From a virus (lineage: Duplodnaviria; Heunggongvirae; Uroviricota; Caudoviricetes), in the IMG/VR virus record IMGVR_UViG_2529292998_000008: 17,672 nt of DNA. One strand, given 5' to 3'. Below the pieces are notes generated by a model, which did no database searches, was not told where the DNA came from, and saw only the letters and a list, made by a program, of their open reading frames with translations. The position numbers and the translations under genes are program-made. This document shows, piece after piece, positions 3,116 to 15,743 of the stretch (within the stretch, counting starts at the first letter, position 1; each line of letters begins with the position of its first letter).

Positions 3116-3716
3116 TTCGTTGTTACCACCATCAGCCAGCAATTTCATGCGTTGTGCCGAAGCCGTCGGAACACGCATTACAGACATTCCGGTAGACCTC
3201 AACACGCTGTGGTCGCCGGACACCTGCCCGGTGCATCTGCTGCCTTATCTCGCCTGGGCGTTTTCCGTTGACCGCTGGGATCGCAACTGGCCGGAAGAGA
3301 CAAAGCGACAGGTGATTCGTGATGCATGGCTGATACACCGACACAAAGGGACCATCAGCGCACTGCGAAGAGCCGTGGAGCCTCTCGGCTACCTGATTGA
3401 AGTAAAGGAGTGGTGGCAACTCAACGAGGAGCCGGGAACATTTCGCATTGTTGTCGGAGTACTTGATCAGGGCATCACCGATGAAATGCATCAGGAACTT
3501 GAGCGCCTTATTGCGGATGCAAAACCAGTAAGTCGCCATCTGACGGGGCTGGCGATCAGCCTGAGTGTGAACGGAAAGATTTTCGTTGGTACGGGATGCT
3601 ATCACGGCGATGCCCTGACGGTTTATCCCTACACCCCGGAGTCCATTATTGTCGAAGGGGACTATTTCCCTGCCCCGGCCATTCATTTAATTGATAATCT
3701 GAGAGTAAACGCATGA
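3108..3716 (+). CDS. I: Baseplate / tail-fiber-attachment protein I
   Basis: ATG at 3108 with AAGGTGGA RBS, overlapping J stop; the ORF track's 3075 start is a GTG extension; stop overlaps H start (ATGA). Confidence 0.75.
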   Translation: MSNSLLPPSASNFMRCAEAVGTRITDIPVDLNTLWSPDTCPVHLLPYLAWAFSVDRWDRNWPEETKRQVIRDAWLIHRHKGTISALRRAVEPLGYLIEVKEWWQLNEEPGTFRIVVGVLDQGITDEMHQELERLIADAKPVSRHLTGLAISLSVNGKIFVGTGCYHGDALTVYPYTPESIIVEGDYFPAPAIHLIDNLRVNA

Positions 3717-5383
3717 CAGTGAAATACTACGCTATTCTGACTAATCAGGGCGCGGCACGACTGGCTAACGCGACGATGCTCGGCAGTAAACTGAATCTGA
3801 CGCAAATGGCCGTTGGTGATGCAAATGGTGTGTTACCAACACCAGACCCTGCACAAACAAAACTGATTAACCAGAAACGCATTGCACCGCTGAATCTTCT
3901 GAGTGTTGACCCTAACAATCAGAGCCAGATTATTGCGGAGCAAATCATCCCTGAAAACGAGGGAGGATTCTGGATCCGTGAGATTGGTCTTTATGATGAT
4001 GAAGGTGCACTCATTGCGGTGGCAAACTGCCCGGAAACGTACAAACCGCAGTTGCAGGAAGGCAGTGGACGCACCCAGACTATCCGCATGATTCTGGTTG
4101 TCACGAACACCGAAGCCATCACGCTGAAAATCGACCCGTCTGTGGTTCTGGCAACCCGCAAATATGTGGATGATAAAATATCAGAGCACGAACAATCACG
4201 ACGTCACCCGGACGCCTCGCTGACCGTAAAAGGTTTTACTCAGTTAAGCAGTGCAATTAACAGTGAATCAGAAACACTGGCCGCAACACCGAAAGCGGTT
4301 AAGGCTGCATATGACCTGGCTAACGGGAAATATACCGCCCAGAACGCCACCACTACACAAAAAGGGATTGTTCAGCTCAGTAGCGCCACGAACAGCACGT
4401 CTGAAACGCTGGCAGCGACACCAAAAGCTGTTAAGGCGGTAATGGATGAAACGAACAAGAAAGCACCATTAAACAGCCCGGCACTGACCGGAACGCCAAC
4501 AACACCAACAGCGCCACAGGGGGCTAATAGTACCCAGATCGCAAGCACGGCTTTCGTTATGGCCGCGATTGCCGCACTTGTAGATTCGTCACCTGATGCA
4601 CTGAACACGCTGAACGAACTGGCTGCGGCGCTGGGCAATGACCCGAATTTTGCGACCACCATGACTAACGCGCTTGCGGGTAAGCAACCGAAGAATGCCA
4701 CCCTGACGGCGCTGGCGAAGCTTGCTACATCAGCAGATAAACTCCCATATTTTACAGGGGCAGATCGTGCCGCGTTAACCGCGTTGACAAGTGTTGGACG
4801 TGCCATTCTTGGTAAAACCAGCACTCAGGGAGTTCTTGATTACCTTGGTTTGGGGGAAGGCTCTGCACTGCCCGTTGGTGTACCTGTTCCGTGGCCCTCA
4901 GCCACTCCACCAACGGGCTGGCTGAAATGCAACGGCGCAGCATTTTCTCCTGAAGATTACCCCAAACTGGCACAGGCTTACCCCGCGAACAAATTACCGG
5001 ATCTACGGGGTGAATTTATCCGTGGCTGGGATGATGGACGTGGCTTGGATGCTGGGCGTGCCTTGCTAAGTCTTCAGGATGACTCTTTTGAAGCGCACAG
5101 GCATGAGTCCTTTTTTTATGCGGGTATTTCACGTAATGAGATCCCATTAAAAAATCTTCCAAGTTCAGACGAGATGCTGACTTTAAGTTCCACAACTAAT
5201 GCCTTGTCCCCGGACGATATTGATGCCACCAACTCGTTAATTGGTAATGACGATTACAACTGTCTTATCGAAGGGAATAAAAATAACAAACGAACAGCGA
5301 CAGGACTGAGTACCAGTATTGTCGGCACAGCAGAAACACGCCCCCGCAACGTTGCATTCAATTACATCGTAAGAGCCGCATGA
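3713..5383 (+). CDS. H: Tail fiber protein H: constant N-terminal part fused in the current orientation to C-terminal cassette C1
   Basis: 556 aa; N-terminus typical of P2 H / Mu S tail fibers; contains two SETLAATPKAVK-type fiber repeats; the C-terminal ~180 aa (from ~4847) is homologous to four downstream cassettes. Confidence 0.9.
   Translation: MTVKYYAILTNQGAARLANATMLGSKLNLTQMAVGDANGVLPTPDPAQTKLINQKRIAPLNLLSVDPNNQSQIIAEQIIPENEGGFWIREIGLYDDEGALIAVANCPETYKPQLQEGSGRTQTIRMILVVTNTEAITLKIDPSVVLATRKYVDDKISEHEQSRRHPDASLTVKGFTQLSSAINSESETLAATPKAVKAAYDLANGKYTAQNATTTQKGIVQLSSATNSTSETLAATPKAVKAVMDETNKKAPLNSPALTGTPTTPTAPQGANSTQIASTAFVMAAIAALVDSSPDALNTLNELAAALGNDPNFATTMTNALAGKQPKNATLTALAKLATSADKLPYFTGADRAALTALTSVGRAILGKTSTQGVLDYLGLGEGSALPVGVPVPWPSATPPTGWLKCNGAAFSPEDYPKLAQAYPANKLPDLRGEFIRGWDDGRGLDAGRALLSLQDDSFEAHRHESFFYAGISRNEIPLKNLPSSDEMLTLSSTTNALSPDDIDATNSLIGNDDYNCLIEGNKNNKRTATGLSTSIVGTAETRPRNVAFNYIVRAA
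4228..4450 (+). repeat. Two copies of a ~29-aa phage tail fibre repeat inside H (…SSA.NS.SETLAATPKAVKA…)
   Basis: Near-identical peptide and nucleotide blocks at ~4228-4314 and ~4361-4450. Confidence 0.7.
4833..4858 (+). repeat. Candidate crossover site s1 (hix/gix-like, H constant/variable junction)
   Basis: On the opposite strand reads CCTTCCCCCAAACC-AA-GGTAATC, resembling the AAACC-NN-GGTTT core of Hin-family sites; start of the ~210-bp block shared by all cassettes. Confidence 0.55.
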
Positions 5384-5402
5384 AAACGTTGGTTTGGGGA
5401 AA
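5377..5402 (+). repeat. Candidate crossover site s2
   Basis: GCATGAAAACG-TT-GGTTTGGGG at the C1 stop / C2 junction; direct orientation relative to s1. Confidence 0.55.
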
Positions 5403-5822
5403 GGCTCTGCGCTGCCCGTTGGTGTGCCCGTTCCGTGGTCCTCAGCAACACCACCAACGGGCTGGCTGAAATGTAACGGCGCAGCATTTTCTTCTGAAAT
5501 GTATCCCGGACTGGCAAAGGCTTACCCCACCAATAAATTACCGGATTTACGGGGTGAATTTATCCGTGGCTGGGATGATGGGCGCGGGATTGATGCGGGA
5601 CGTACCCTGCTTTCAGGGCAGGATGGTACAAGTTTTTCTCATTACGGAGGTAATTTCGACATTGGGTCTGGTCATTCAATCAATAACTATGACCAAATTG
5701 TTTCTAACCAACCAAGCTTTTCCCGTTTTTCATTTGCAGGACCTTCACGAGGTGATGGGGTCAATTATGTAACCATTCGTCCTCGTAATATTGCGTTTAA
5801 TTACATCGTAAGGGCAGCATGA
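5394..5822 (+). CDS. Silent tail fiber C-terminal cassette C2 (no ATG; expressible only after fusion to H)
   Basis: 142-codon frame beginning GKGSALPVGVPVPW…, ending RPRNIAFNYIVRAA*; conserved ~70-aa N-part, unique middle. Confidence 0.65.
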   Translation: MGKGSALPVGVPVPWSSATPPTGWLKCNGAAFSSEMYPGLAKAYPTNKLPDLRGEFIRGWDDGRGIDAGRTLLSGQDGTSFSHYGGNFDIGSGHSINNYDQIVSNQPSFSRFSFAGPSRGDGVNYVTIRPRNIAFNYIVRAA

Positions 5823-5841
5823 AAACGTTGGTTTGGGGGAA
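5816..5841 (+). repeat. Candidate crossover site s3
   Basis: Same GCATGAAAACG-TT-GGTTTGGGGG junction sequence between C2 and C3. Confidence 0.55.
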
Positions 5842-6309
5842 GGCTCTGCACTGCCCGTTGGTGTGCCTGTTCCATGGCCCTTAGCAACACCACCAACGGG
5901 CTGGCTGAAATGTAACGGTGCAGCATTTTCTTCTGAAATGTACCCCAAACTGGCAAAAGCCTACCCCACTAATAAATTACCGGATTTACGCGGAGAATTT
6001 ATCCGTGGCTGGGATGATGGGCGAGGAATTGATGCGGCACGCGCTTTATTGAGCATTCAAAACGGGATGTTGGAAAAACACCGCCATATTGTTGTAGCTA
6101 ACGATGGATATGACACAAAAGATGAATGGGAGTTGGCTACGATTTTCAAAAAAACATATACACAAGGCAGGGGGCTTGATGCCACAAATACAGGAGGGAG
6201 TTTGATTCCATCACCAACGCTTCATTCACGAGGAAGTATTGGTAACACAGGTGGTAGTGAAACCCGCCCCCGCAATATTGCATTTAACTATATCGTGAGG
6301 GCGGCTTAG
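5833..6309 (+). CDS. Silent tail fiber C-terminal cassette C3
   Basis: 158-codon frame GEGSALPVGVPVPWPLATPPTGWLKCNGAAF… ending …NIAFNYIVRAA*; no ATG start. Confidence 0.65.
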   Translation: MGEGSALPVGVPVPWPLATPPTGWLKCNGAAFSSEMYPKLAKAYPTNKLPDLRGEFIRGWDDGRGIDAARALLSIQNGMLEKHRHIVVANDGYDTKDEWELATIFKKTYTQGRGLDATNTGGSLIPSPTLHSRGSIGNTGGSETRPRNIAFNYIVRAA

Positions 6310-6315
6310 TTATAT

Positions 6316-6927
6316 TCAACTGGCTGCTGCCAGTGGTATTTCCGGCAAGTTGATATCTGGTACCATGTTTATATCCATTGCGTTCAGCGCGTCTATATAA
6401 TCCAGCACGGCATTAAGCCGGGTGGTTTCTGCCTGCGTCAACTTCCGCCCGGCCTGCAACTTCAACTGAATCAGACTTATGGAAGCCATTGCCGCATCAG
6501 CCAGTGACTGGCGCTTGGTTTCTGCCGCTTCTACTGCGGCACGATGTTGTGCCTCAGTATCTGTCACCCATTTTTCACCATCCCATTTATCGTATGGTGT
6601 TAACGGGGCGATAGTGGTTGTAGTTTTCGGGTAGTCACCCAGCGCCGTGATTTCTTCGGTGTTTCCCGTGTCAGTGCTATAGACGGTTTCACCACGATGG
6701 TCTGGCGCATACTCCCATGAACTTAAATTCTCCGAACGGCGGATAGCATAGCCCGCTTTATGTGCGCCCGGGGCATCTAAACAGGAATTTGCCGGAATAC
6801 CGACACCCACAGCAAGATATTCAGTTGATTCGGAAATATATTCCCGTGTCTCACCATCATAGTTATAAACGACGATGTTTCCTGCCTGTACGGCAATAAG
6901 GTCATCATTTAATATCGCGTTATTCAT
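6316..6927 (-). CDS. Tail fiber assembly chaperone (Tfa; Mu U / P2 G / TfaE family)
   Basis: 203 aa; C-terminal half recognisably similar to E. coli TfaE (…DHRGxTVY…KWNG/DGxxWVxDTEA…); start ATG overlaps the stop of cassette B (TAATG). Confidence 0.8.
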   Translation of the reverse strand: MNNAILNDDLIAVQAGNIVVYNYDGETREYISESTEYLAVGVGIPANSCLDAPGAHKAGYAIRRSENLSSWEYAPDHRGETVYSTDTGNTEEITALGDYPKTTTTIAPLTPYDKWDGEKWVTDTEAQHRAAVEAAETKRQSLADAAMASISLIQLKLQAGRKLTQAETTRLNAVLDYIDALNAMDINMVPDINLPEIPLAAAS

Positions 6928-7385
6928 TATGCGGTTCTCACAATATAATTGAAGGCAATATTGCGTGGGCGGTTTTCATTCCCATCTGAGGATTCCGTTC
7001 TGTATTGACTGGTAAATCTACCGTTAATTGCACCTTGCCGGACGGCGTTATCTGTCGACAACAGACTATCCCCTCTTTTGTCATTTGGCACCAGTACCGT
7101 GTTATCCCACGCATCCCATGACCGAATATTATGATAATGACTTCCTGTTAACCACCCCTGCATGCTTAAGATGCCCCTTCCGGCATCCACCCCGCGCCCA
7201 TCATCCCAGCCACGGATAAACTCACCGCGTAAATCAGGTAATTTTAACGTTGGGTAAACCTTTGCCAGATTTGGGTACATTTCAGAAGAAAATGCTGCAC
7301 CGTTACATTTCAGCCAGCCCGTTGGTGGTGTGGCTGAGGGCCATGGAACAGGCACACCAACGGGCAGTGCAGAGCCTTCCCCCAA
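6927..7385 (-). CDS. Tail fiber C-terminal cassette B (inverted orientation, translationally coupled to tfa)
   Basis: 152-codon frame GEGSALPVGVPVPWPSATPPTGWLKCNGAAF… ending …NIAFNYIVRTA*. Confidence 0.65.
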   Translation of the reverse strand: MGEGSALPVGVPVPWPSATPPTGWLKCNGAAFSSEMYPNLAKVYPTLKLPDLRGEFIRGWDDGRGVDAGRGILSMQGWLTGSHYHNIRSWDAWDNTVLVPNDKRGDSLLSTDNAVRQGAINGRFTSQYRTESSDGNENRPRNIAFNYIVRTA

Positions 7386-7402
7386 ACCAACGTTTTCATG
7401 CT
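7377..7402 (-). repeat. Candidate crossover site s4 (inverted relative to s1-s3)
   Basis: Plus strand reads TTCCCCCAAACC-AA-CGTTTTCATGC, the reverse complement of the s2/s3 junction. Confidence 0.55.
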
Positions 7403-7959
7403 GCCCTTACGATGTAATTAAACGCAATGTTGCGTGGGCGGTTTTCGTTTGCAGTTGGAACAATTTTTGAAGCATCAAGGCCAATCACTTTTGGGTAAAC
7501 AGCGCCGTCTGTCCTTTCTGTCACCATACTTCTGACTAAGGAGAAATAACTATTGTTTGTTGAGGAATTTAAAGGCACCACTGCCCCCTTAAACGAGCCT
7601 ACTGATTCCCATATTGAATAATTTTCAGTGTTTACAGTCTTGAACTCACCATAGATATTACGTATGGCATCACCTTGAGCGGATAATATTGTTCTCCCCG
7701 CATCCGCACTACGTCCATCATCCCAGCCACGAATAAATTCACCCCGTAAATCCGGTAATTTATTGGTGGGGTAAGCCTTTGCCAGTCCGGGATACATTTC
7801 AGAAGAAAATGCTGCGCCGTTACATTTCAGCCAGCCCGTTGGTGGTGTTGCTGAGGGCCACGGAACGGGCACACCAACAGGCAGCGCAGAACCTTCCCCC
7901 AAACCAACGTTTTCGTTTTTATCCCTACCTATACCAACTATGTATTTTTCACGAAACAA
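7396..7959 (-). CDS. Tail fiber C-terminal cassette A (inverted orientation, nearest the invertase)
   Basis: Frame …VGLGEGSALPVGVPVPWPSATPP… ending …NIAFNYIVRAA*; the ORF track's N-terminal extension to a TTG at 7959 is probably not translated. Confidence 0.6.
   Translation of the reverse strand: MFREKYIVGIGRDKNENVGLGEGSALPVGVPVPWPSATPPTGWLKCNGAAFSSEMYPGLAKAYPTNKLPDLRGEFIRGWDDGRSADAGRTILSAQGDAIRNIYGEFKTVNTENYSIWESVGSFKGAVVPLNSSTNNSYFSLVRSMVTERTDGAVYPKVIGLDASKIVPTANENRPRNIAFNYIVRAA
7894..7919 (-). repeat. Candidate crossover site s5 (inverted; sits just upstream of the invertase promoter/start)
   Basis: Plus strand CCTTCCCCCAAACC-AA-CGTTTTCGTT at 7894-7919. Confidence 0.55.
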
Positions 7960-7973
7960 AGAGGATGTTTTTT

Positions 7974-8573
7974 ATGCAAATTGGCTATGTTCGTGTGTCA
8001 ACAAATGACCAGAACACGGATTTACAACGCAATGCACTGAACTGCGCAGGATGTGAACTGATTTTTGAAGATAAAATCAGCGGAACGAAATCAGCCAGAC
8101 CGGGATTGAAAAAACTGCTCAGAACGCTATCAGAAGGAGATACGCTGGTTGTCTGGAAGCTGGACAGACTGGGCAGAAGTATGAAACACCTGATCACGCT
8201 TATTGAGGAATTGCGGGAAAAAGGTGTTAATTTCCGTAGTCTGACGGACAGCATTGACACATCAACACCCATGGGGCGTTTCTTTTTTCACGTCATGGGG
8301 GCTTTAGCCGAAATGGAACGTGAATTAATTGTAGAGCGTACACTGGCCGGGCTGGCAGCAGCACGCGCACAAGGACGCATTGGCGGACGTCGCCCGAAGT
8401 TGACAAAAGAACAACACGAGCAAATAGCGAGGCTGATTAAAAACGGTCATGACAGGAAACAACTGGCGATCATTTACGACATCGGCATATCGACGATTTA
8501 TCGTTATCACCCTGTAGGCGATATACAGGCTGAAGAAACAACCAGGCAGACTCAGGAAAATGAAAACCGCTAA
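7974..8573 (+). CDS. Site-specific DNA invertase, serine recombinase of the Hin/Gin/Cin/Pin family
   Basis: N-terminus MQIGYVRVSTNDQNTDLQRNAL with catalytic Ser in the VRVST motif; C-terminal HTH (GISTIYRY); GAGGA RBS 8 nt before ATG 7974; the ORF-track start at 7779 is an upstream in-frame extension. Confidence 0.9.
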   Translation: MQIGYVRVSTNDQNTDLQRNALNCAGCELIFEDKISGTKSARPGLKKLLRTLSEGDTLVVWKLDRLGRSMKHLITLIEELREKGVNFRSLTDSIDTSTPMGRFFFHVMGALAEMERELIVERTLAGLAAARAQGRIGGRRPKLTKEQHEQIARLIKNGHDRKQLAIIYDIGISTIYRYHPVGDIQAEETTRQTQENENR

Positions 8574-8592
8574 TCTGACCATTAGCGGTTTT
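8562..8592. terminator. Bidirectional intrinsic terminator between convergent invertase and U
   Basis: Perfect inverted repeat AAAACCGCTAAT-CTGACC-ATTAGCGGTTTT, with A-run on one side and T-run on the other. Confidence 0.6.
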
Positions 8593-8599
8593 GCGTTAA

Positions 8600-9094
8600 T
8601 CAAAACAGCCCTTTAACGGAGCTGGCCGCGCTGTTAAGGGATGATGTGACCTTATCTTTGAAGCCGGACAGCATATCACTGAACGATGAGGATTGCAGGC
8701 GCTCCCGCAAATCCTCATCACAGCGTTCAAGAGTCAGTGAAAACTCTATCTTTTTCGCCTTACCGTAGCGATCAAACTCGGAGCGGGTCGTATTCGTTCC
8801 GGTCAGGACATACATGCCGTAAATCTGCCCGACACCATCAATCAGAGGCCAGGGGCGTCCTGTATATGCCTGCGTGGTCAGCAACGAAAGCGACACTTCG
8901 CCACCTGTAATTTCAGGATAAAGCACACCAGAAAGAACGATGCGATCATCGCCTGCCCCGATATACTGCCAGCTTGCTGAACGGTTAACGCGTTCATTTT
9001 TCACATGCCGCCAGCTTTTGTTTTGCTGTAACTGCTGATGCGGCAACGTACGCAGCTCAAAAACAAACATGCCGTAGATCATCATCATGGCCAT
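8600..9094 (-). CDS. U: Tail protein U, P2 gpU-like
   Basis: 164 aa; recognisable similarity to P2 gpU (…GMFVFxxxTLPHQ…GVLYPExTGG…WPLxDGxGxIYGMYV…). Confidence 0.85.
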   Translation of the reverse strand: MAMMMIYGMFVFELRTLPHQQLQQNKSWRHVKNERVNRSASWQYIGAGDDRIVLSGVLYPEITGGEVSLSLLTTQAYTGRPWPLIDGVGQIYGMYVLTGTNTTRSEFDRYGKAKKIEFSLTLERCDEDLRERLQSSSFSDMLSGFKDKVTSSLNSAASSVKGLF

Positions 9095-9100
9095 GACTCC

Positions 9101-11917
9101 TCAATCTTTATCGTAAAAACTGCCACGCCCGGCACGGGCGCGCCGTTCCATTTCTGCCCTGACCATTTCACCGACCAGTTTCGCCAGTTCGCGGGGATTC
9201 TGCGTAACAACGTTATGCAGATGAACATGAATTTCACCACCAAATCCGGAGGCAACAGGCTCCCGGTTACGGGAAGTTACAGGAACTGATGCCACTGGAG
9301 ATCGTATGGCCTCCGCCACCGGGCGGGAGCTGGCCGCAACAACAGGGACCAGCGCCGGAGGCAGCGGAGCCGGGACCACGGGGGTGATATTCATTGCGGG
9401 GGCAGGCTTACTGACCTGTGCAATCTTCCGCTCCTGCCACTCCCCACGAACAGCAAGTGCGCGGGGCAGGTTCTTAAAGACAATATCGCCGGGGCCAATA
9501 CGTTTTTTTGTCTCATCAACCAGCTTACCTGTGTTATCAGCAATTTTGCTGAGTCTGCGTAGCGTGCCGGTATTGCTGTCTGTGAGCGGTTTGTTGTCTT
9601 TGGGTTTATCGCCTCCGGTGCCATTGCCATTTTCCGCAGACTTCGGCGGATTGATTTTCGCAATGTCTCCCTGAAACAGAGCAACCTTGTCCTGAAGAAT
9701 GGCCGCACGCTGTGCGTCTTCGATTTTCTTTCTCGCCCTTTCCGCTTCATCCGGAAGCACACCGAGTTTTTCAAGTATCCACGCCAGCGTATCCAGCAAC
9801 ATTTTTGCAGGCGTCAGAACAAGCTGTAGCGCGCCACCAAGAGCGTTACCGAATATCTCGCCAGCACTGGTACATTTATCCAGCGTTTCCTTGCTGGACT
9901 CCATCGGTGACAGCAGCGATTTAAACCAGTTAAACACCTGGCTGATCCCGCTTCCGATTGCGTCAAAAACAGGACCAAACCGTTCAAAGGTTTCACGCAA
10001 CGGGTTCAGCCTTTCCATAATCCCGCTGAACACCCCGGCAAAAAATGCCCTGATGGGATCCCAGTATTTCCAGATAAGAACGGCAGCTCCGGCAAGCGCA
10101 GCCACGATAAGACCAACCGGACTGAACAGCGCCCCGATAGCGCCTCCCAGCAAAGAAACGGAACCCGTCACCATTCCCCACAGCGCAGGCAACACCCTGA
10201 CGACATTCATTGACCGGGTAAGAATGTCAAAACCAAGACGCAGGGTGGCCAGCTTCCCGTAAAGCACCCCAATAACCAGTGACAACGAGCCAATCGTTGC
10301 AGTCATTGCCAGCAACGCACCGCCTGCTATCAGTAGCTGGCGCGTCAGTACCGGATGGGCCTGCGCCAGCGAGGTGATTTTTTCAAGCACCCGCGTGAGC
10401 CACTGCGTGACAGAACGCAGCGGACCGTCAACCAGATCACTGATGCGAATACGAAGACCTTCCCATGCGCTGTCGAGATTTTTCAGGTCCCCATCAAGAT
10501 TATCGGCCATTACTTTTGCAACGCGATCGGCCTCTCCCCTTGCCCCCTGCAATTCTCTGGTCAGTTTTTGCAGCTCTCCTGAACCAGCCGCCGCAACAAG
10601 CGTCTGCAAACCAACGAACGCCTCTTCTCCGGCGATGTCCTTGAAGAAGGAGACCTGGTCCACCTGTCCGTATTTTTGTGTCGCCTTATAGAGATCAAGC
10701 AGCACATCCTCCATCGGGCGCATTTTGCCTCTGGCGTCAGCAACTGACACCCCCAGCTCTTTCAGTGCATCAGCCGCAGCTTTTGGCGGTGATGCAAGGC
10801 GGGACAGACTTGCGCGCATGGCCGTGCCAGCATCGCTTCCGCGAAGACCATTATTGGCAAGCATCCCGGCCATAGCCGCCGCTTCTTCAAGACTGATACC
10901 AAGTTTTGCGGCAACCGGACCGGTATACTTCATGGTTTCGCCCAGCGCGCGTAAATCAGTATTGGTCCGGGTGAATGCCGCTGTCAGCGTATCGCCAACC
11001 CGGTCCATTTGATCGGCTGTCAGGTTGAACTGTGTGAGGATATTGGAGCCTATATCCGCCGTCTCGCCGAGTTCGACGCCACCTGCCAGCGCCATATTAA
11101 GAACACCGGGCAATGCGGCCTGAATGGCCTGCGGAGTAAAACCAGCCATTGCCAGAAAGCTCTGCCCACTGGCGGCATCACTCGCAGTAAACTGTGTTTC
11201 AGAGCCAAGTTTTAACGCCTGCTCACGCAGCGCCTTAAACTGCGGGCTGTTTTTGTCGATTCGCGTCAGTGCCTGAACGCGGGACATCTCTTTGCCGAAC
11301 CCGATCGCAGGCTGCAAAAAACGCCCGGCAGCATAGCCGCCCGCCGCTGCCGCACCAATTGCCAGCGCACCACCTGTTTTCAGTTTTCCCGCGGTTTCCT
11401 GCGCGCGCGAATACCGCTCACGCGCCCGCGTTACACGCGCAAGCGCCTGCCGTTCGCGTTCAAGCTGGTTGTTGTACTGTTCGGTGCGTCTGATGGCCTG
11501 CTGGATGGTGTTATCGCTGCCTGTCAGGGAAATGCCGTGGCGTTTCAGCTCTCCGCCAAGCTCCCGCATTTTCTGAATTTCCCGTGTGCGCGATTCATTC
11601 AGGCGTTCAAGCCGGGTGCTTAACTGCTGCATCAGCTTTTGTTGTTTTTCGCTGAGCACTGTACCCGTGCGTTGTAACTGATTAAGGGCGTTAAGCTGGC
11701 GTCGTGCTTTCACGATACCCGCATCCGCTTTACTGACAGCGTCGCGGGCGCGCTCAAATGATCGCGCCTGACGCTCGAGATTTTTGATCGCCCCCTGCGT
11801 TCGCTGGATGGAGTCACCAAACTGCCCCATCAGGCGGCGGGCGTTTTCGGCAGGCCGGGTCAGCCTGTCAACGGCGCTGAAAGCGACCCGGATATCAAGA
11901 GTCTTCATTGTCTGCAT
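9101..11917 (-). CDS. T: Tail tape measure protein T
   Basis: ~940 aa, coiled-coil-rich N-part and hydrophobic central segment; between E' and U. Start ambiguous: first ATG at 11917, in-frame GTG at 11944. Confidence 0.85.
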   Translation of the reverse strand: MQTMKTLDIRVAFSAVDRLTRPAENARRLMGQFGDSIQRTQGAIKNLERQARSFERARDAVSKADAGIVKARRQLNALNQLQRTGTVLSEKQQKLMQQLSTRLERLNESRTREIQKMRELGGELKRHGISLTGSDNTIQQAIRRTEQYNNQLERERQALARVTRARERYSRAQETAGKLKTGGALAIGAAAAGGYAAGRFLQPAIGFGKEMSRVQALTRIDKNSPQFKALREQALKLGSETQFTASDAASGQSFLAMAGFTPQAIQAALPGVLNMALAGGVELGETADIGSNILTQFNLTADQMDRVGDTLTAAFTRTNTDLRALGETMKYTGPVAAKLGISLEEAAAMAGMLANNGLRGSDAGTAMRASLSRLASPPKAAADALKELGVSVADARGKMRPMEDVLLDLYKATQKYGQVDQVSFFKDIAGEEAFVGLQTLVAAAGSGELQKLTRELQGARGEADRVAKVMADNLDGDLKNLDSAWEGLRIRISDLVDGPLRSVTQWLTRVLEKITSLAQAHPVLTRQLLIAGGALLAMTATIGSLSLVIGVLYGKLATLRLGFDILTRSMNVVRVLPALWGMVTGSVSLLGGAIGALFSPVGLIVAALAGAAVLIWKYWDPIRAFFAGVFSGIMERLNPLRETFERFGPVFDAIGSGISQVFNWFKSLLSPMESSKETLDKCTSAGEIFGNALGGALQLVLTPAKMLLDTLAWILEKLGVLPDEAERARKKIEDAQRAAILQDKVALFQGDIAKINPPKSAENGNGTGGDKPKDNKPLTDSNTGTLRRLSKIADNTGKLVDETKKRIGPGDIVFKNLPRALAVRGEWQERKIAQVSKPAPAMNITPVVPAPLPPALVPVVAASSRPVAEAIRSPVASVPVTSRNREPVASGFGGEIHVHLHNVVTQNPRELAKLVGEMVRAEMERRARAGRGSFYDKD

Positions 11918-12424
11918 TCCCGCTGCGAAGTGCCGCCCGCTCACGCCAGCTAACCACTTCGCCGGGCGTCATCATGAAGATTTCGGCGGGCGACCAGTTA
12001 AAAATGGCGGCAATATCCGCCACAAAGTCTTCTATGTGCTCAAAGCACACAACCGTGATCAGGCTTCCGTCGCCTGTTCGCTCTTCCCGCCAGAGTCCGC
12101 ACCGCTCAAAAAATTTACGGCAACCACACATAACTGAATAAAATCACGGGATGCCATTTTTTTGATCGTCACTTCATCCAGTCGTGGCGAGGTCACGCGT
12201 GACAGCAGCGTAAACATGGATTCCGCTTTCAGATTCAGCACATCAGACAGCGACAAATCTCGCAGAGATCCAGCCTGCTCAATAGCCCCGGTGATCTCCA
12301 CATACGTGATTTTTTCGCCGCCTCGCTCAATTGGTTGGGTAAGTTTTACGCCACGCTCACTGGTTTCTTTCACAGTGTCAGTAACTACCGTGTTTTCGGT
12401 ATCGATGTTTTTCGTCTCTTTCAT
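11895..12424 (-). CDS. E': Tail assembly chaperone E+E' (product of a programmed -1 frameshift)
   Basis: The -1 frame downstream of a T-TTT-TTG slippery heptamer (plus-strand 12107-12113) stays open to 11895 and overlaps the T start, as in P2 E/E' and lambda G/GT. Confidence 0.7.
12059..12424 (-). CDS. E: Tail assembly chaperone E
   Basis: 121 aa; AAAGGAG RBS before the ATG at 12424; lies between FII and T. Confidence 0.8.
   Translation of the reverse strand: MKETKNIDTENTVVTDTVKETSERGVKLTQPIERGGEKITYVEITGAIEQAGSLRDLSLSDVLNLKAESMFTLLSRVTSPRLDEVTIKKMASRDFIQLCVVAVNFLSGADSGGKSEQATEA
12107..12113 (-). promoter_or_regulatory. Slippery heptamer for the E to E' -1 ribosomal frameshift
   Basis: Minus-strand sequence AAT-TTT-TTG-AGC in the E frame. 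Confidence 0.6.
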
Positions 12425-12478
12425 CAGGAAACTCCTTTCAGTCAGAGGCGACGCACTGCGCCGCCTGCATATTACTTA

Positions 12479-12991
12479 TCAGCCAAGCCCGAGCGCGGAA
12501 CGGATGCGATCGGGCACAATGTCCTTGCCGTCCTTCCGGTAGATGTGGTTCAACAGGTCGATTTCCCACAGCGGGCGATCGTTAACGCTCAGCTTGTAGT
12601 AGGTGTTTTTGACAGCGTAAGTGTGTGATGTGGCTTCGCCCTGTTTGGCCTCCCCCATATCAATTTCCGTCACACGCCCGCGCATCTCGATTTCATACAG
12701 ATCGCTTTCTGCATCGGTGTAGTATTCACCCGCAAAACGCAGCAGCGTGCCGTCAATCGTGCCGCCATATTTAAGGAACAGCGCACGAACAGCTCCCCCC
12801 ATGACAAAGCTCGCATCAAGCGCGGAGTCGTCCAGACCGAGATCAATACTTACCGCCCCCATCATGCCACCACCCCGGTAGCTGTCGGTTTTGCGCGTCA
12901 GCTTAGGCAGAGTGACGGACGTCACCTTACCCACTTCGTTTTCACCATCCACAAACAGCGTAAAAAAGCGAAGATGTTTTGGTACAGCCAT
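12479..12991 (-). CDS. FII: Tail tube protein FII
   Basis: 170 aa; recognisable similarity to P2 FII (…VTLPKLTRK…YRGxGM…DLGLDD…RFAG…MRG…EIDxGExKQGE…). Confidence 0.9.
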   Translation of the reverse strand: MAVPKHLRFFTLFVDGENEVGKVTSVTLPKLTRKTDSYRGGGMMGAVSIDLGLDDSALDASFVMGGAVRALFLKYGGTIDGTLLRFAGEYYTDAESDLYEIEMRGRVTEIDMGEAKQGEATSHTYAVKNTYYKLSVNDRPLWEIDLLNHIYRKDGKDIVPDRIRSALGLG

Positions 12992-14175
12992 CAGGCACCT
13001 CCCAGCACCGCAAATGCGGGACCAAAGAATTCATCAGTAAACGTCTGGTAAAGCTCCATGTCTTCCAGTGGCGGAACGGGCGTATATTTGTAGCGAATAC
13101 GCACACGTCCCTGACGTAAATCCGTGGTGCCGTTATCCACCACGTCATACCAGCACTCCGCGCCAATCAGTTTCCCGGCAGTAACCAGCGAATCCAGTTT
13201 TGCCCTGATGGCACTGATAACATCCTTCACGTTCGCAGGCGTCAGTGGACTGTCGATGGTTTCAAACTGCGCTTCCGCAATTGAATCAGCCAGCACCTGT
13301 GCGGTTCGGGTATACACCTCAAAGATGTAGGCGTTCGTTTCCGGTGTGCGGTTGCCCCAGAAGCGGAACCCGTTACGACGAATAATGGTCGTGATTTCTT
13401 TGTTGTTGAGGCTGTTGGCATCACTGTCTTCGGCCTGTAACGACCAGAACACATGCCTCGACATCCCCAGCACATTTTTAACCGGAACGTTGGACAGCGA
13501 TTTGTGCCAGCCCTGCTCATGGTCAATGTACGCACGAAGGCCGCACGCATAAGCAGGCGCGGGGAACGTTTCGTTTTTGCCACTTTTCGGGTTGTAGGCG
13601 ATGAAGTCAGGCCATAAGAGCATCACCTCACGTTCGTTGAATTTCTGGCGGTAGGTAATCGCCTCAGCCATCGTGTTACAACCATGACATGCGGCATACA
13701 CAAACGCGCGCAGTTTACCCGCAATCACGCACAGGGATTTTGTCACCGCCTCCGTGTCCAGCTCCGGCGCGGCCAGAATACGCGGACGGTATCCGATGCT
13801 TTCATCCTGCTCTGCAACAAGCAGCGCATACATCCCCGTATAGCTGCCGTCAGATTCAGAACCACCGATAACCAGTTGATCCTGCGTCTTTCCGTTTTCT
13901 TCTTTGTGTTCAGCCACGCGAACGACGATCACCTTTGTGCTCACCTGGTCTGCGATGGCCTTAAGCGCACGATAAAGCGTCCCCGTTGTCCCGCATTTTC
14001 CCAGCACGTCATTGACGCGGGTCAGCAGTGTGGGCTTGTTCAGCGGGAACAGCTTCGCGTCCGCATCATCCGCCGTTGCCACGATACCGATAACGCTGGA
14101 ATCAACATCGTTAATCGCTGTTACCAGGTCGGTACTTTCCGTAACACGGGCACCATGAAAACGAGTTTCACTCAT
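12991..14175 (-). CDS. FI: Contractile tail sheath protein FI
   Basis: 394 aa; strong similarity to P2 FI (…DADAxxFPLNKP…WPDF…QGWHKxLSNV…GFRFWGNRT…YTPVPPLE…); AAGGGG RBS. Confidence 0.9.
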   Translation of the reverse strand: MSETRFHGARVTESTDLVTAINDVDSSVIGIVATADDADAKLFPLNKPTLLTRVNDVLGKCGTTGTLYRALKAIADQVSTKVIVVRVAEHKEENGKTQDQLVIGGSESDGSYTGMYALLVAEQDESIGYRPRILAAPELDTEAVTKSLCVIAGKLRAFVYAACHGCNTMAEAITYRQKFNEREVMLLWPDFIAYNPKSGKNETFPAPAYACGLRAYIDHEQGWHKSLSNVPVKNVLGMSRHVFWSLQAEDSDANSLNNKEITTIIRRNGFRFWGNRTPETNAYIFEVYTRTAQVLADSIAEAQFETIDSPLTPANVKDVISAIRAKLDSLVTAGKLIGAECWYDVVDNGTTDLRQGRVRIRYKYTPVPPLEDMELYQTFTDEFFGPAFAVLGGA

Positions 14176-14332
14176 AGCTTCAGCCCCTTGTATCCGTTAA
14201 ATGATTCGGCAACAATCATCACCCACCACGCGCGTAATCTCACCCCTGCGCCGTTCTCCCGCCACGGCGACAACAAAAAGCAGTAACCCCCTCCGCACGC
14301 ACATGCGACCATGCCGCACAGGGAGGGAGCAG
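14176..14332. promoter_or_regulatory. Divergent intergenic region between the FI operon (minus) and D-ogr (plus); presumed late promoters
   Basis: 157-bp non-coding gap between divergent start codons; no confident -35/-10 or Ogr-type TGT-N12-ACA motif found by eye. Confidence 0.35.
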
Positions 14333-15442
14333 ATGACCGACACCACCATGCAATTGCTCAGTCAGGGCACAGACCCCGTGAAAATGCCGGATTTTGATAT
14401 TCTCGCGGAGGGTAAAACGCTGTCAGGCGTGGCAGAGTGCCTGATGAGCCTGTCACTGACCGACAACCGGGGATTTGAGGCGGACCAGCTCACCATCACG
14501 CTGGATGATGCGGATGGTCAGTTGCAGCTACCGCCACGGGGCGCGCGCCTGACGGTTCTCATTGGCTGGAAAGGAGAACCGCTGACAGAAAAAGGCACTT
14601 ACATTGTTGATGAAATCGCTCACGAAGGACCGCCGGACAGGCTGACTGTTTCAGCCAGAAGCGCAGATTTTCGGGATGAATTTAACGTTAAACGTGAGGT
14701 GTCCTGGCATGATGTGACCGTTGAGCGTGTGGTATCCGCCATCGCTCATCGGTATGGTCTGAAACCGCAAATCAGCGAAATGCTGATGGATATCGAAATC
14801 GACCACGCCGACCAGACCGAAGAAAGCGACATGTCCTTCCTTACGCGCATGGCGGAAATGCTGGGCGCAATCACCACGGTAAAAAGCGGTAATCTGTTAT
14901 TCATCATGCCCGGCGGTGGCGTGAACGCACAGGGCCAGCCGTTGCCATCGTTTGCCATCACACGCAGCAGCGGCGATCGCCATCAGTTCCGCATTGCTGA
15001 CCGCGAAGCGTATACGGGGGTACGCGCTTACTGGCTTGATCTTAATTACGGGAAAAAGAAAAAAGTCAGCGTGAAACGCCGTAAACCGCCAAAACCCAAA
15101 AAGGAGAAAAGCAGCAGCCGTGAAGGTGATTATATGGAAGGCGCGGAAGGCAATGTGTTTGTGTTACGCAAGACTTATCAGAACGAGCAGACAGCAAGAC
15201 GCGCAGCGGCGGCAAAGTGGCAGCAACTACAACGCGGAGCCGCATCATTCTCCATCACGCTGGCGCGTGGACGTGCAGAACTCTACCCCGAAATGCATGG
15301 CACGGTAACAGGATTTAAAAGCGAGATTGATAATCAGGACTGGATCATTGCAAAAGCCGAGCACACCATTGATAACAGCGGTTTTACCACGCAGCTTGAG
15401 CTTGAGGCAAAAATCCCGGAATGGATAGCGGAAACAGAGTGA
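14333..15442 (+). CDS. D: Tail protein D
   Basis: 369 aa from the ATG at 14333, preceded by an AGGGAGGG RBS (the ORF track extends to 14201 but lacks an RBS there); position before ogr as in P2. Confidence 0.8.
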   Translation: MTDTTMQLLSQGTDPVKMPDFDILAEGKTLSGVAECLMSLSLTDNRGFEADQLTITLDDADGQLQLPPRGARLTVLIGWKGEPLTEKGTYIVDEIAHEGPPDRLTVSARSADFRDEFNVKREVSWHDVTVERVVSAIAHRYGLKPQISEMLMDIEIDHADQTEESDMSFLTRMAEMLGAITTVKSGNLLFIMPGGGVNAQGQPLPSFAITRSSGDRHQFRIADREAYTGVRAYWLDLNYGKKKKVSVKRRKPPKPKKEKSSSREGDYMEGAEGNVFVLRKTYQNEQTARRAAAAKWQQLQRGAASFSITLARGRAELYPEMHGTVTGFKSEIDNQDWIIAKAEHTIDNSGFTTQLELEAKIPEWIAETE

Positions 15443-15482
15443 GCAACTTAGAATAGGCAGCACCACGTTAAGGGAGGTCGCT

Positions 15483-15743
15483 ATGTTCCGTTGTCCGCTT
15501 TGTGGCGCATCTGCCCGTATCCGCACCAGTCGTTCGGAAAATGATTCAAACACCGTACGGAAAAAATATTACCAGTGTAACAACCTGGAATGCGGCATAA
15601 GTTTCTCAACACTGGAAGCTTTCCATAAATTCACATCGAAACACGCCCCCGGCGTTCACTCTTCAGAAGGTATCCCGTGGCATGAGTTGCCAGCTTCACA
15701 CAGGGGAAACAATCAGATGAGTTTGCCTTTATCTCAGAATTAA
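15483..15743 (+). CDS. ogr: Late-gene transcriptional activator, Ogr/Delta zinc-finger family
   Basis: 86 aa, MFRCPLCG…YYQCNNLECG… Cys-X2-Cys…Cys-X4-Cys motif like P2 Ogr; AGGGAGG RBS. Confidence 0.85.
   Translation: MFRCPLCGASARIRTSRSENDSNTVRKKYYQCNNLECGISFSTLEAFHKFTSKHAPGVHSSEGIPWHELPASHRGNNQMSLPLSQN

Follow-up and report, generated by a model that had tools for sequence, protein, structure and literature searches.

The 17,672-nucleotide stretch of Caudoviricetes DNA in IMG/VR record IMGVR_UViG_2529292998_000008 (here, the window) contains an invertible region in which five alternative tail fiber tips, encoded by cassettes C1, C2, C3, B, and A, are accompanied by a single tail fiber assembly (chaperone) gene, tfa. 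On the strength of sequence comparisons, we think it somewhat probable that the lone tfa of this Min/Pin-type shufflon encodes a generic chaperone for the whole class of tips built on a collar domain. A Gin-family invertase recombines five 26-bp crossover sites, so that any of the five collar tips can be fused to the constant part of the fiber protein H, and under this model the single Tfa would act on all five tips. The array seems to have expanded as cassettes lacking a tfa were added around an original pair of tip and tfa (B-tfa), which still occupies its center, facing C3. In isomers that leave tfa antisense to the fiber transcript, the tips may fold less efficiently without Tfa, or they may obtain it from transcription that our scans did not locate. 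The anatomy of the locus, the space of its isomers, the lack of covariation between tfa and tip, and an association between Tfa domain and tip class were established directly. How tips fold in the tfa-antisense half of the isomers is a small question; its answer would extend to many Escherichia coli prophages and P1-like plasmids.

One tfa gene in a five-cassette invertible region

The tfa gene (6316..6927, minus strand) lies between the C3 and B cassettes and encodes a protein of 203 amino acids (aa) that belongs to the Caudo_TAP family (PF02413; E = 8.9e-31 over residues 78-198, 107 bits against a cutoff of 22.1). An original prediction, made from the sequence without database searches, had placed a single TfaE-like gene at these positions, with its ATG overlapping the stop codon of cassette B. 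Pfam, the sequence itself, tblastn, and hidden Markov model (HMM) searches all bear this out: the TAA of cassette B (6929-6927) and the ATG of tfa (6927-6925) share base 6927, giving TAATG. That prediction named a second tfa-like gene just outside its analyzed region as one finding that would count against it. No second tfa was found in the 17.7-kb window, where tblastn returned tfa itself and chance matches only (E ≥ 1) and an iterative HMM sensitive to Tfa proteins of as little as ~31% identity recovered one tfa open reading frame (ORF). The statement that tfa is coupled only to cassette B is right about the junction but does not mark a peculiarity of this locus, since TAATG or TGATG forms the tip-tfa junction in every coupled pair examined. 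A PDB sequence search with Tfa gave no significant match, and NCBIfam holds no model for tfa or for the tips.

To judge from its sequence, the region at 4833-8573 is a Min/Pin-type multiple-inversion tail fiber region (“shufflon”) of the p15B Min kind. A repeat search and alignment identified five 26-bp crossover sites with an identical central TT in all; s1 to s3 are plus-strand sites and s4 and s5 minus-strand sites. Site s1 (4833-4858, plus; TTCTTGATTACC-TT-GGTTTGGGGGAA) lies within H. It is followed by s2 (5377-5402, plus), whose left arm holds the C1 stop codon, by s3 (5816-5841, plus) and s4 (7377-7402, minus), and by the outermost site, s5 (7894-7919, minus), which adjoins the promoter region of the invertase gene. 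Sites at cassette starts read AGCATGAAAACG-TT-GGTTTGGGGGAA, the left arms of s2 and s5 departing slightly from this form. The invertase gene itself (7974..8573, plus) encodes a Gin/Min-type serine DNA invertase of 199 aa with a Resolvase domain (E = 2.1e-51) and a C-terminal helix-turn-helix domain (HTH_7); it matches the Gin-length DNA-invertase chains 3uj3 and 4m6f over its full length (E ~1e-91).

The H gene (3713-5383, plus) encodes Pfam domains Phage_tail_fib, two Phage_fiber_2 repeats, and Collar. Its constant part (3713..4846, plus), which comprises Phage_tail_fib (residues 1-150) and the two repeats, ends at the center of the crossover site. Because H bears a C-terminal Collar domain, its present 3′ end is itself a tip cassette, C1 (4847..5383, plus; Collar PF07484 at H residues 389-436). 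The other four cassettes are Collar segments without start codons of their own: C2 (5391..5822, plus; Collar E = 6.4e-14), which lacks one in the fiber frame; C3 (5830..6309, plus; E = 4.8e-15), which is convergent with tfa and shares its invertible segment; B (6927..7388, minus, with the gene call at 6927-7385; E = 1.6e-14), whose stop overlaps the tfa start; and A (7396..7905, minus; E = 2.9e-14). Collar PF07484 was thus detected by Pfam in five of five cassettes. In alignment, the tips have in common a collar N-terminal part of ~77 aa and a closing C-terminal strand, RPRNIAFNYIVRAA, and the variation among them is confined to an inserted head of 53 to 88 aa. A profile built from all five matches the tip of T4 gp37 (2xgf; 7.5e-20) as well as a short tail fiber (9cuy; 6.7e-23), and both matches span the collar and the C-terminal strand. 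We take each cassette to consist of an invariant collar scaffold and a head that varies. Clustering of 178 cassettes by their variable part gave 24 types, in which C1 belongs to type T09, C2 to T06, C3 to T00, B to T01, and A to T02.

Some further features of the cassettes may be mentioned here. Each stop codon sits in the left arm of the next site (GCA TGA AAACG; 5377-5402, 5816-5841, and 7377-7402), and an out-of-frame ATG at those left arms opens an ORF of ~21 codons, which could be the remnant of a former tfa start or could hold ribosomes on untranslated cassettes. The collar-coding part is mosaic: at window positions 7241-7268, for example, some T01 cassettes and T08 encode KVYPTLK and other T01 cassettes encode the common KAYPTNK, which suggests gene conversion among cassettes. 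Cassette number ranges from 2 to 13 among close relatives. Cassette A (compare 7396-7919) is missing from a 99.1%-identical locus in E. coli PO06021 (L001), a state that would be the expected product of deletion between the directly repeated s4 and s5.

The N-domain of Tfa follows the collar class rather than the tip type

Loci that have one collar tip, which are either Mu-type segments or fixed pairs of H and tfa, couple Tfa proteins ~78% identical to that of the window to at least 15 tip types, including T00 (C3) and T02 (A). Each of the types that have no tfa of their own in shufflons (T00, T02, T03, T04, T05, and T08) is tfa-coupled in single-tip loci. Ten tip types are coupled to a single-linkage cluster of 38 tfa genes at ≥95% identity, and two or three types to each of the clusters at ≥98% identity. 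Tips 93 to 97% identical to the C3 of the window are followed directly by their own tfa in the Mu-type segments of loci L166-L174. HK97 Stf carries this collar tip at its end, and the Tfa that comes after it shares 76% identity with that of the window. Among the Enterobacterales, 71 of 92 collar tips are directly followed by Tfa.

We divided the window Tfa into residues 1-105 (N-part) and 106-203 (C-part) and searched with each. The N-part was matched by all 224 full-length Tfa proteins coupled to a collar tip, as opposed to 7 of the 78 Tfa proteins that do not adjoin one, and all 7 are contig-edge or missed-adjacency cases. The C-part alone was matched by 52 of those 78. By these matches, Tfa is modular, with an N-terminal domain specific to the tip class and a conserved C-terminal domain, and the type of N-domain tracks the collar class, not the variable region or the tip type. 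The N-domain of Tfa is the part that binds the fiber, while the C-domain trimerizes (PMC9608196, summarizing work on Mu Tfa). Taken together, the data fit a chaperone that would recognize the collar scaffold common to all cassettes. The original prediction had left three alternatives side by side, namely, that the tips fold without a cognate chaperone, that one chaperone serves all tips, or that only some isomers yield functional fibers; the second is the one we favor, the other two being less favored. Engineering of phage and tailocin host range usually assumes that each new tip needs its cognate chaperone. If one Tfa serves the whole collar-tip class, tips could be swappable as bare 150-aa cassettes.

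One tfa per array is the general pattern. A 3.2-kb query from the region matches 1,775 of 5,426 complete E. coli genomes, and 181 PLSDB plasmids, mostly P1-like, match the region as well; among the plasmid matches listed, the annotation of all 15 shows a single tfa alongside several “phage tail protein” cassettes. Multi-cassette IMG/VR loci retrieved via tfa, in which two to nine cassettes were detected, have a single tfa in 25 of 26 cases, and all seven multi-cassette arrays retrieved via the C3 tip instead have exactly one. A P1-like E. coli plasmid (L002) carries 13 collar cassettes and one tfa, 95% identical to that of the window. The locus with two tfa genes, L006, has two T01-tfa modules head to head with overlapping collar regions (5565-7609). 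We set it aside as a counterexample, as such overlapping modules are probably a misassembly of mixed isomers; if the duplication were a real palindrome, it would keep one tfa always in sense. The single-tfa layout is, by these comparisons, the ordinary architecture of Min/Pin-type regions, a kind of system known since 1990-1992, and not a new one.

Orientation of tfa among the isomers

When inversions between sites of opposite orientation were enumerated breadth-first, the five sites of the window gave 48 reachable isomers, with tfa in sense in 24 and antisense in 24. In the present isomer tfa is antisense to H::C1; the coordinates agree with the original prediction on this point, but only half of the isomers have this arrangement, so that “antisense” is a property of the assembled isomer and not of the locus. 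One inversion suffices to place tfa in sense with H::C1, H::B, or H::A. The tips differ in this respect. For H::B, tfa is in sense in all isomers and is also translationally coupled; for H::C3, it is antisense in all isomers, C3 and tfa being tail to tail on one segment; and for H::C1, H::C2, and H::A, the isomers of each tip divide equally between sense and antisense tfa.

Deposited assemblies of near-identical loci include 10 with tfa antisense and 7 with tfa in sense, with several H::tip fusions among them. For example, L003 and L014 have H::T01-tfa in sense, and L018 has H::T00 with tfa antisense. In the P2-like prophage of enteropathogenic E. coli (EPEC) E2348/69, inversion of a three-cassette shufflon was verified by PCR, and four variants coexist (PMC4272514). 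Segments of this type of locus do invert, as judged from the deposited relatives and the E2348/69 PCR rather than from the strain analyzed here.

Alternative explanations for a single tfa

Several results weigh against a chaperone generic to the collar class. Among the 25 tfa genes with a typeable opposing cassette, 18 face the C3 type (T00), and C3-type cassettes opposite tfa have a dN/dS of 0.18 in the variable part (14 distinct sequences), next to 0.19 for the coupled B type, both values being sums over non-independent pairs. Taken at face value, this would mean that H::C3 fibers are functional. Since C3 is under purifying selection yet never co-oriented with tfa, Tfa would be either dispensable for C3 or made in both orientations; were Tfa to come from read-through of the fiber operon alone, C3 could have no strict requirement for it. 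The C3 cassette may also be maintained in part by exchange with Mu-type loci. In three P2-like loci, from Pluralibacter (L123, 4684-7863), an Enterobacterales metagenome-assembled genome (L141, 5455-7819), and Rahnella (L149, 5449-7772), the tail sheath gene comes directly after a collar-tipped H, and there is no tfa closer than 6 kb; thus, the collar fold does not always need a Caudo_TAP partner. Moreover, the tfa of shufflons nearly always adjoins one tip type, the coupled tip in multi-cassette loci being T01 (B) in 24 of 25 typed cases. The Tfa proteins of shufflons and those of single-tip loci diverge at residues 1-20 and 181-203, and some B-specific adaptation of the shufflon Tfa may have taken place. 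Finally, promoter scans of the region and its relatives did not find a conserved tfa promoter, and a literature search yielded no experiment on this Tfa.

One alternative, which we regard as possible but doubtful, is that tfa is expressed in every orientation, either from a promoter inside the invertible region or by leftward transcription from the invertase side, so that every isomer would receive the chaperone. Such expression would fit the purifying selection seen on C3-type cassettes, which are never co-oriented with tfa. Promoter-like sites in the region are, however, no commoner than in shuffled sequence. The one sigma-70-like site upstream of tfa, in cassette B at 7268-7241 (CTGGCA-16-TAAAAT), was rejected as a candidate, as just 8 of 24 T01 cassettes have its TAAAAT, which T08 shares. 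Leftward transcription could arise by read-through from the FI-FII-E-T-U operon, which converges on the invertible region in this phage lineage, or from a late promoter near a TGT-N12-ACA dyad at 7941-7958, between s5 and the invertase ATG. Dyads of this kind are found in P2 late promoters, and the phage encodes an Ogr/Delta protein. Read-through was discarded because a hairpin intervenes: a terminator scan placed a probable bidirectional terminator at 8563..8592, between the convergent invertase and gpU genes, with a 12-bp stem and a minimum free energy of -18.4 kcal/mol for its 68-nt context. In addition, P1-like plasmids with the same single-tfa layout lack a convergent late operon. As for an Ogr-type leftward late promoter, the dyad is a weak lead only. 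The window holds two TGT-N12-ACA dyads against 4.6 expected by chance; close relatives of both the P2-like and the P1-like kind retain the one at 7941-7958, and L011 does not; and no -10 element was found by eye at leftward-promoter spacing from it.

Alternatively, and in our view unlikely, Tfa could be dedicated to B, with the other four small collar tips trimerizing without a Caudo_TAP chaperone, perhaps via host chaperones; the absence of tfa beside those tips would then mean that it is dispensable to them. The T01 coupling in shufflons, the distinctive N terminus and C-terminal tail of their Tfa, the collar-tipped fibers without tfa, and the purifying selection on C3 are all consistent with such dedication, as is T4 gp12, a protein with a collar domain that is listed as requiring gp57A only and not gp38 (PMC3004832). 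Yet the very tip types that stand without tfa in shufflons are each tfa-coupled in single-tip loci, most Enterobacterales collar tips lead directly into Tfa, and the class of the N-domain goes with the collar rather than with the type of tip.

It is quite improbable that functional fibers come from tfa-sense isomers only, with the other half of the isomers, including all H::C3 cells, releasing fiber-defective particles as a cost of the shuffling: the analogy with Mu, in which expression of U and U′ is limited to the G orientation proper to each, and the failure to find a tfa promoter speak for it, but the C3 type keeps an intact frame and its low dN/dS, and antisense isomers are about as frequent as sense ones in assemblies, which reflect the prophage state and are weak evidence. 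Mu Tfa remains on the fiber tip and contributes to receptor recognition (PMC9608196). By analogy, the orientation of tfa might act as a second, hidden switch that presents C1, C2, and A each in a Tfa-capped and an uncapped form. We consider this very improbable; if true, the 48 isomers would yield up to eight adsorption phenotypes instead of five, with B always capped and C3 never.

Prophage backbone

Gene order and Pfam domains assign the window to the tail region of a P88-type (Xuanwuvirus), P2-like prophage, and the backbone of P88_4B11 matches that of the window. Genes R, S, V, W, J, and I and the fiber gene H lie on the plus strand, followed by the invertible region and the serine invertase gene. 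The genes for gpU and the tape measure protein T, an unassigned ORF of 121 aa where P2 has gene E, and FII and FI lie on the minus strand; gpD and an Ogr/Delta zinc-finger gene follow this block on the plus strand. The FI-FII-E-T-U block (8600-14175, minus) is inverted relative to the order in P2 and converges on the invertible region. The same inverted order is found in P88_4B11 and in many IMG/VR loci, and gpU is on the same strand as H in other relatives (L031, L058, L071, and L081). From gpD onward (14201-15743), genes are on the plus strand, and the starts of FI (14175) and gpD (14201) are divergent and only 25 bp apart, leaving hardly any space for promoters.

Comparison with known systems

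T4 gp37/gp38 and HK97 gp28-gp29 (lambdoid Stf-Tfa) resemble the tips of the window in having a collar, a closing strand (NIAFNYIVR), and a chaperone gene directly downstream. T4 gp37 and lambdoid Stf are, however, single fixed tips that undergo no inversion, and T4 gp37 has a long needle in place of the short variable head. Lambda Tfa can reportedly replace T4 gp38, a result attributed to Montag and Henning in 1987 and to Hashemolhosseini in 1996.

The two-state segments Mu G/Gin, P1 C/Cin, e14 P/Pin, and those of P88-type phages have in common with the window the invertase family, the 26-bp sites, a variable 3′ end fused to the fiber gene, and an invertase gene that lies downstream and reads away from the segment. 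In such segments there are two tips, each with its own tfa. The pairing of tip and tfa in Mu-type segments, which the original prediction took as its point of departure, is indeed seen in P88_4B11 and in L166-L174. The window departs from it, as its five alternative tips have one tfa among them and not one each.

A closer counterpart is the P2-like prophage of EPEC E2348/69, which has the same backbone and whose locus is ~96% identical to the window at the nucleotide level. It contains, in order, J, I, H::tip, a C3-type cassette, tfa (minus, 612 bp), a B-type cassette (459 bp), the invertase gene, and gpU (minus), with three cassettes as opposed to five in the window. The paper on this shufflon does not treat the chaperone (PMC4272514; Goldberg et al., 2014).

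The p15B Min region and its P1/P7-like copies have the same composition: a Gin-family invertase, more than two sites, and a constant fiber 5′ part with alternative 3′ cassettes. They differ in genomic setting, the region of the window being on a P2/P88-like chromosomal prophage and joined to a P2-type H and not to the P1 gene S. The window has five sites and 48 isomers and lacks a truncated second invertase gene. In the work of Sandmeier, Iida, and Arber from 1990 to 1992, p15B is said to have six sites and 240 isomers, and a truncated invertase gene has reportedly been described beside min. On the P1-like plasmid of L002, a truncated second recombinase gene (8493-8670) lies beside the invertase gene and recalls the one of p15B. 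The P7-like plasmid pMCR_SCKP-LL83 carries an invertible region reported to be 99% identical to p15B min, with one 612-bp tfaE that has 1 nt in common with a 459-bp ORF (PMC5786510). The novelty implied by the original prediction is thus not upheld, as the same single-tfa layout is present in this plasmid (PMC5786510) and in the E2348/69 shufflon (PMC4272514). Because the near-p15B min region of pMCR_SCKP-LL83 has one tfaE, the single-tfa design dates to the archetypal Min system.

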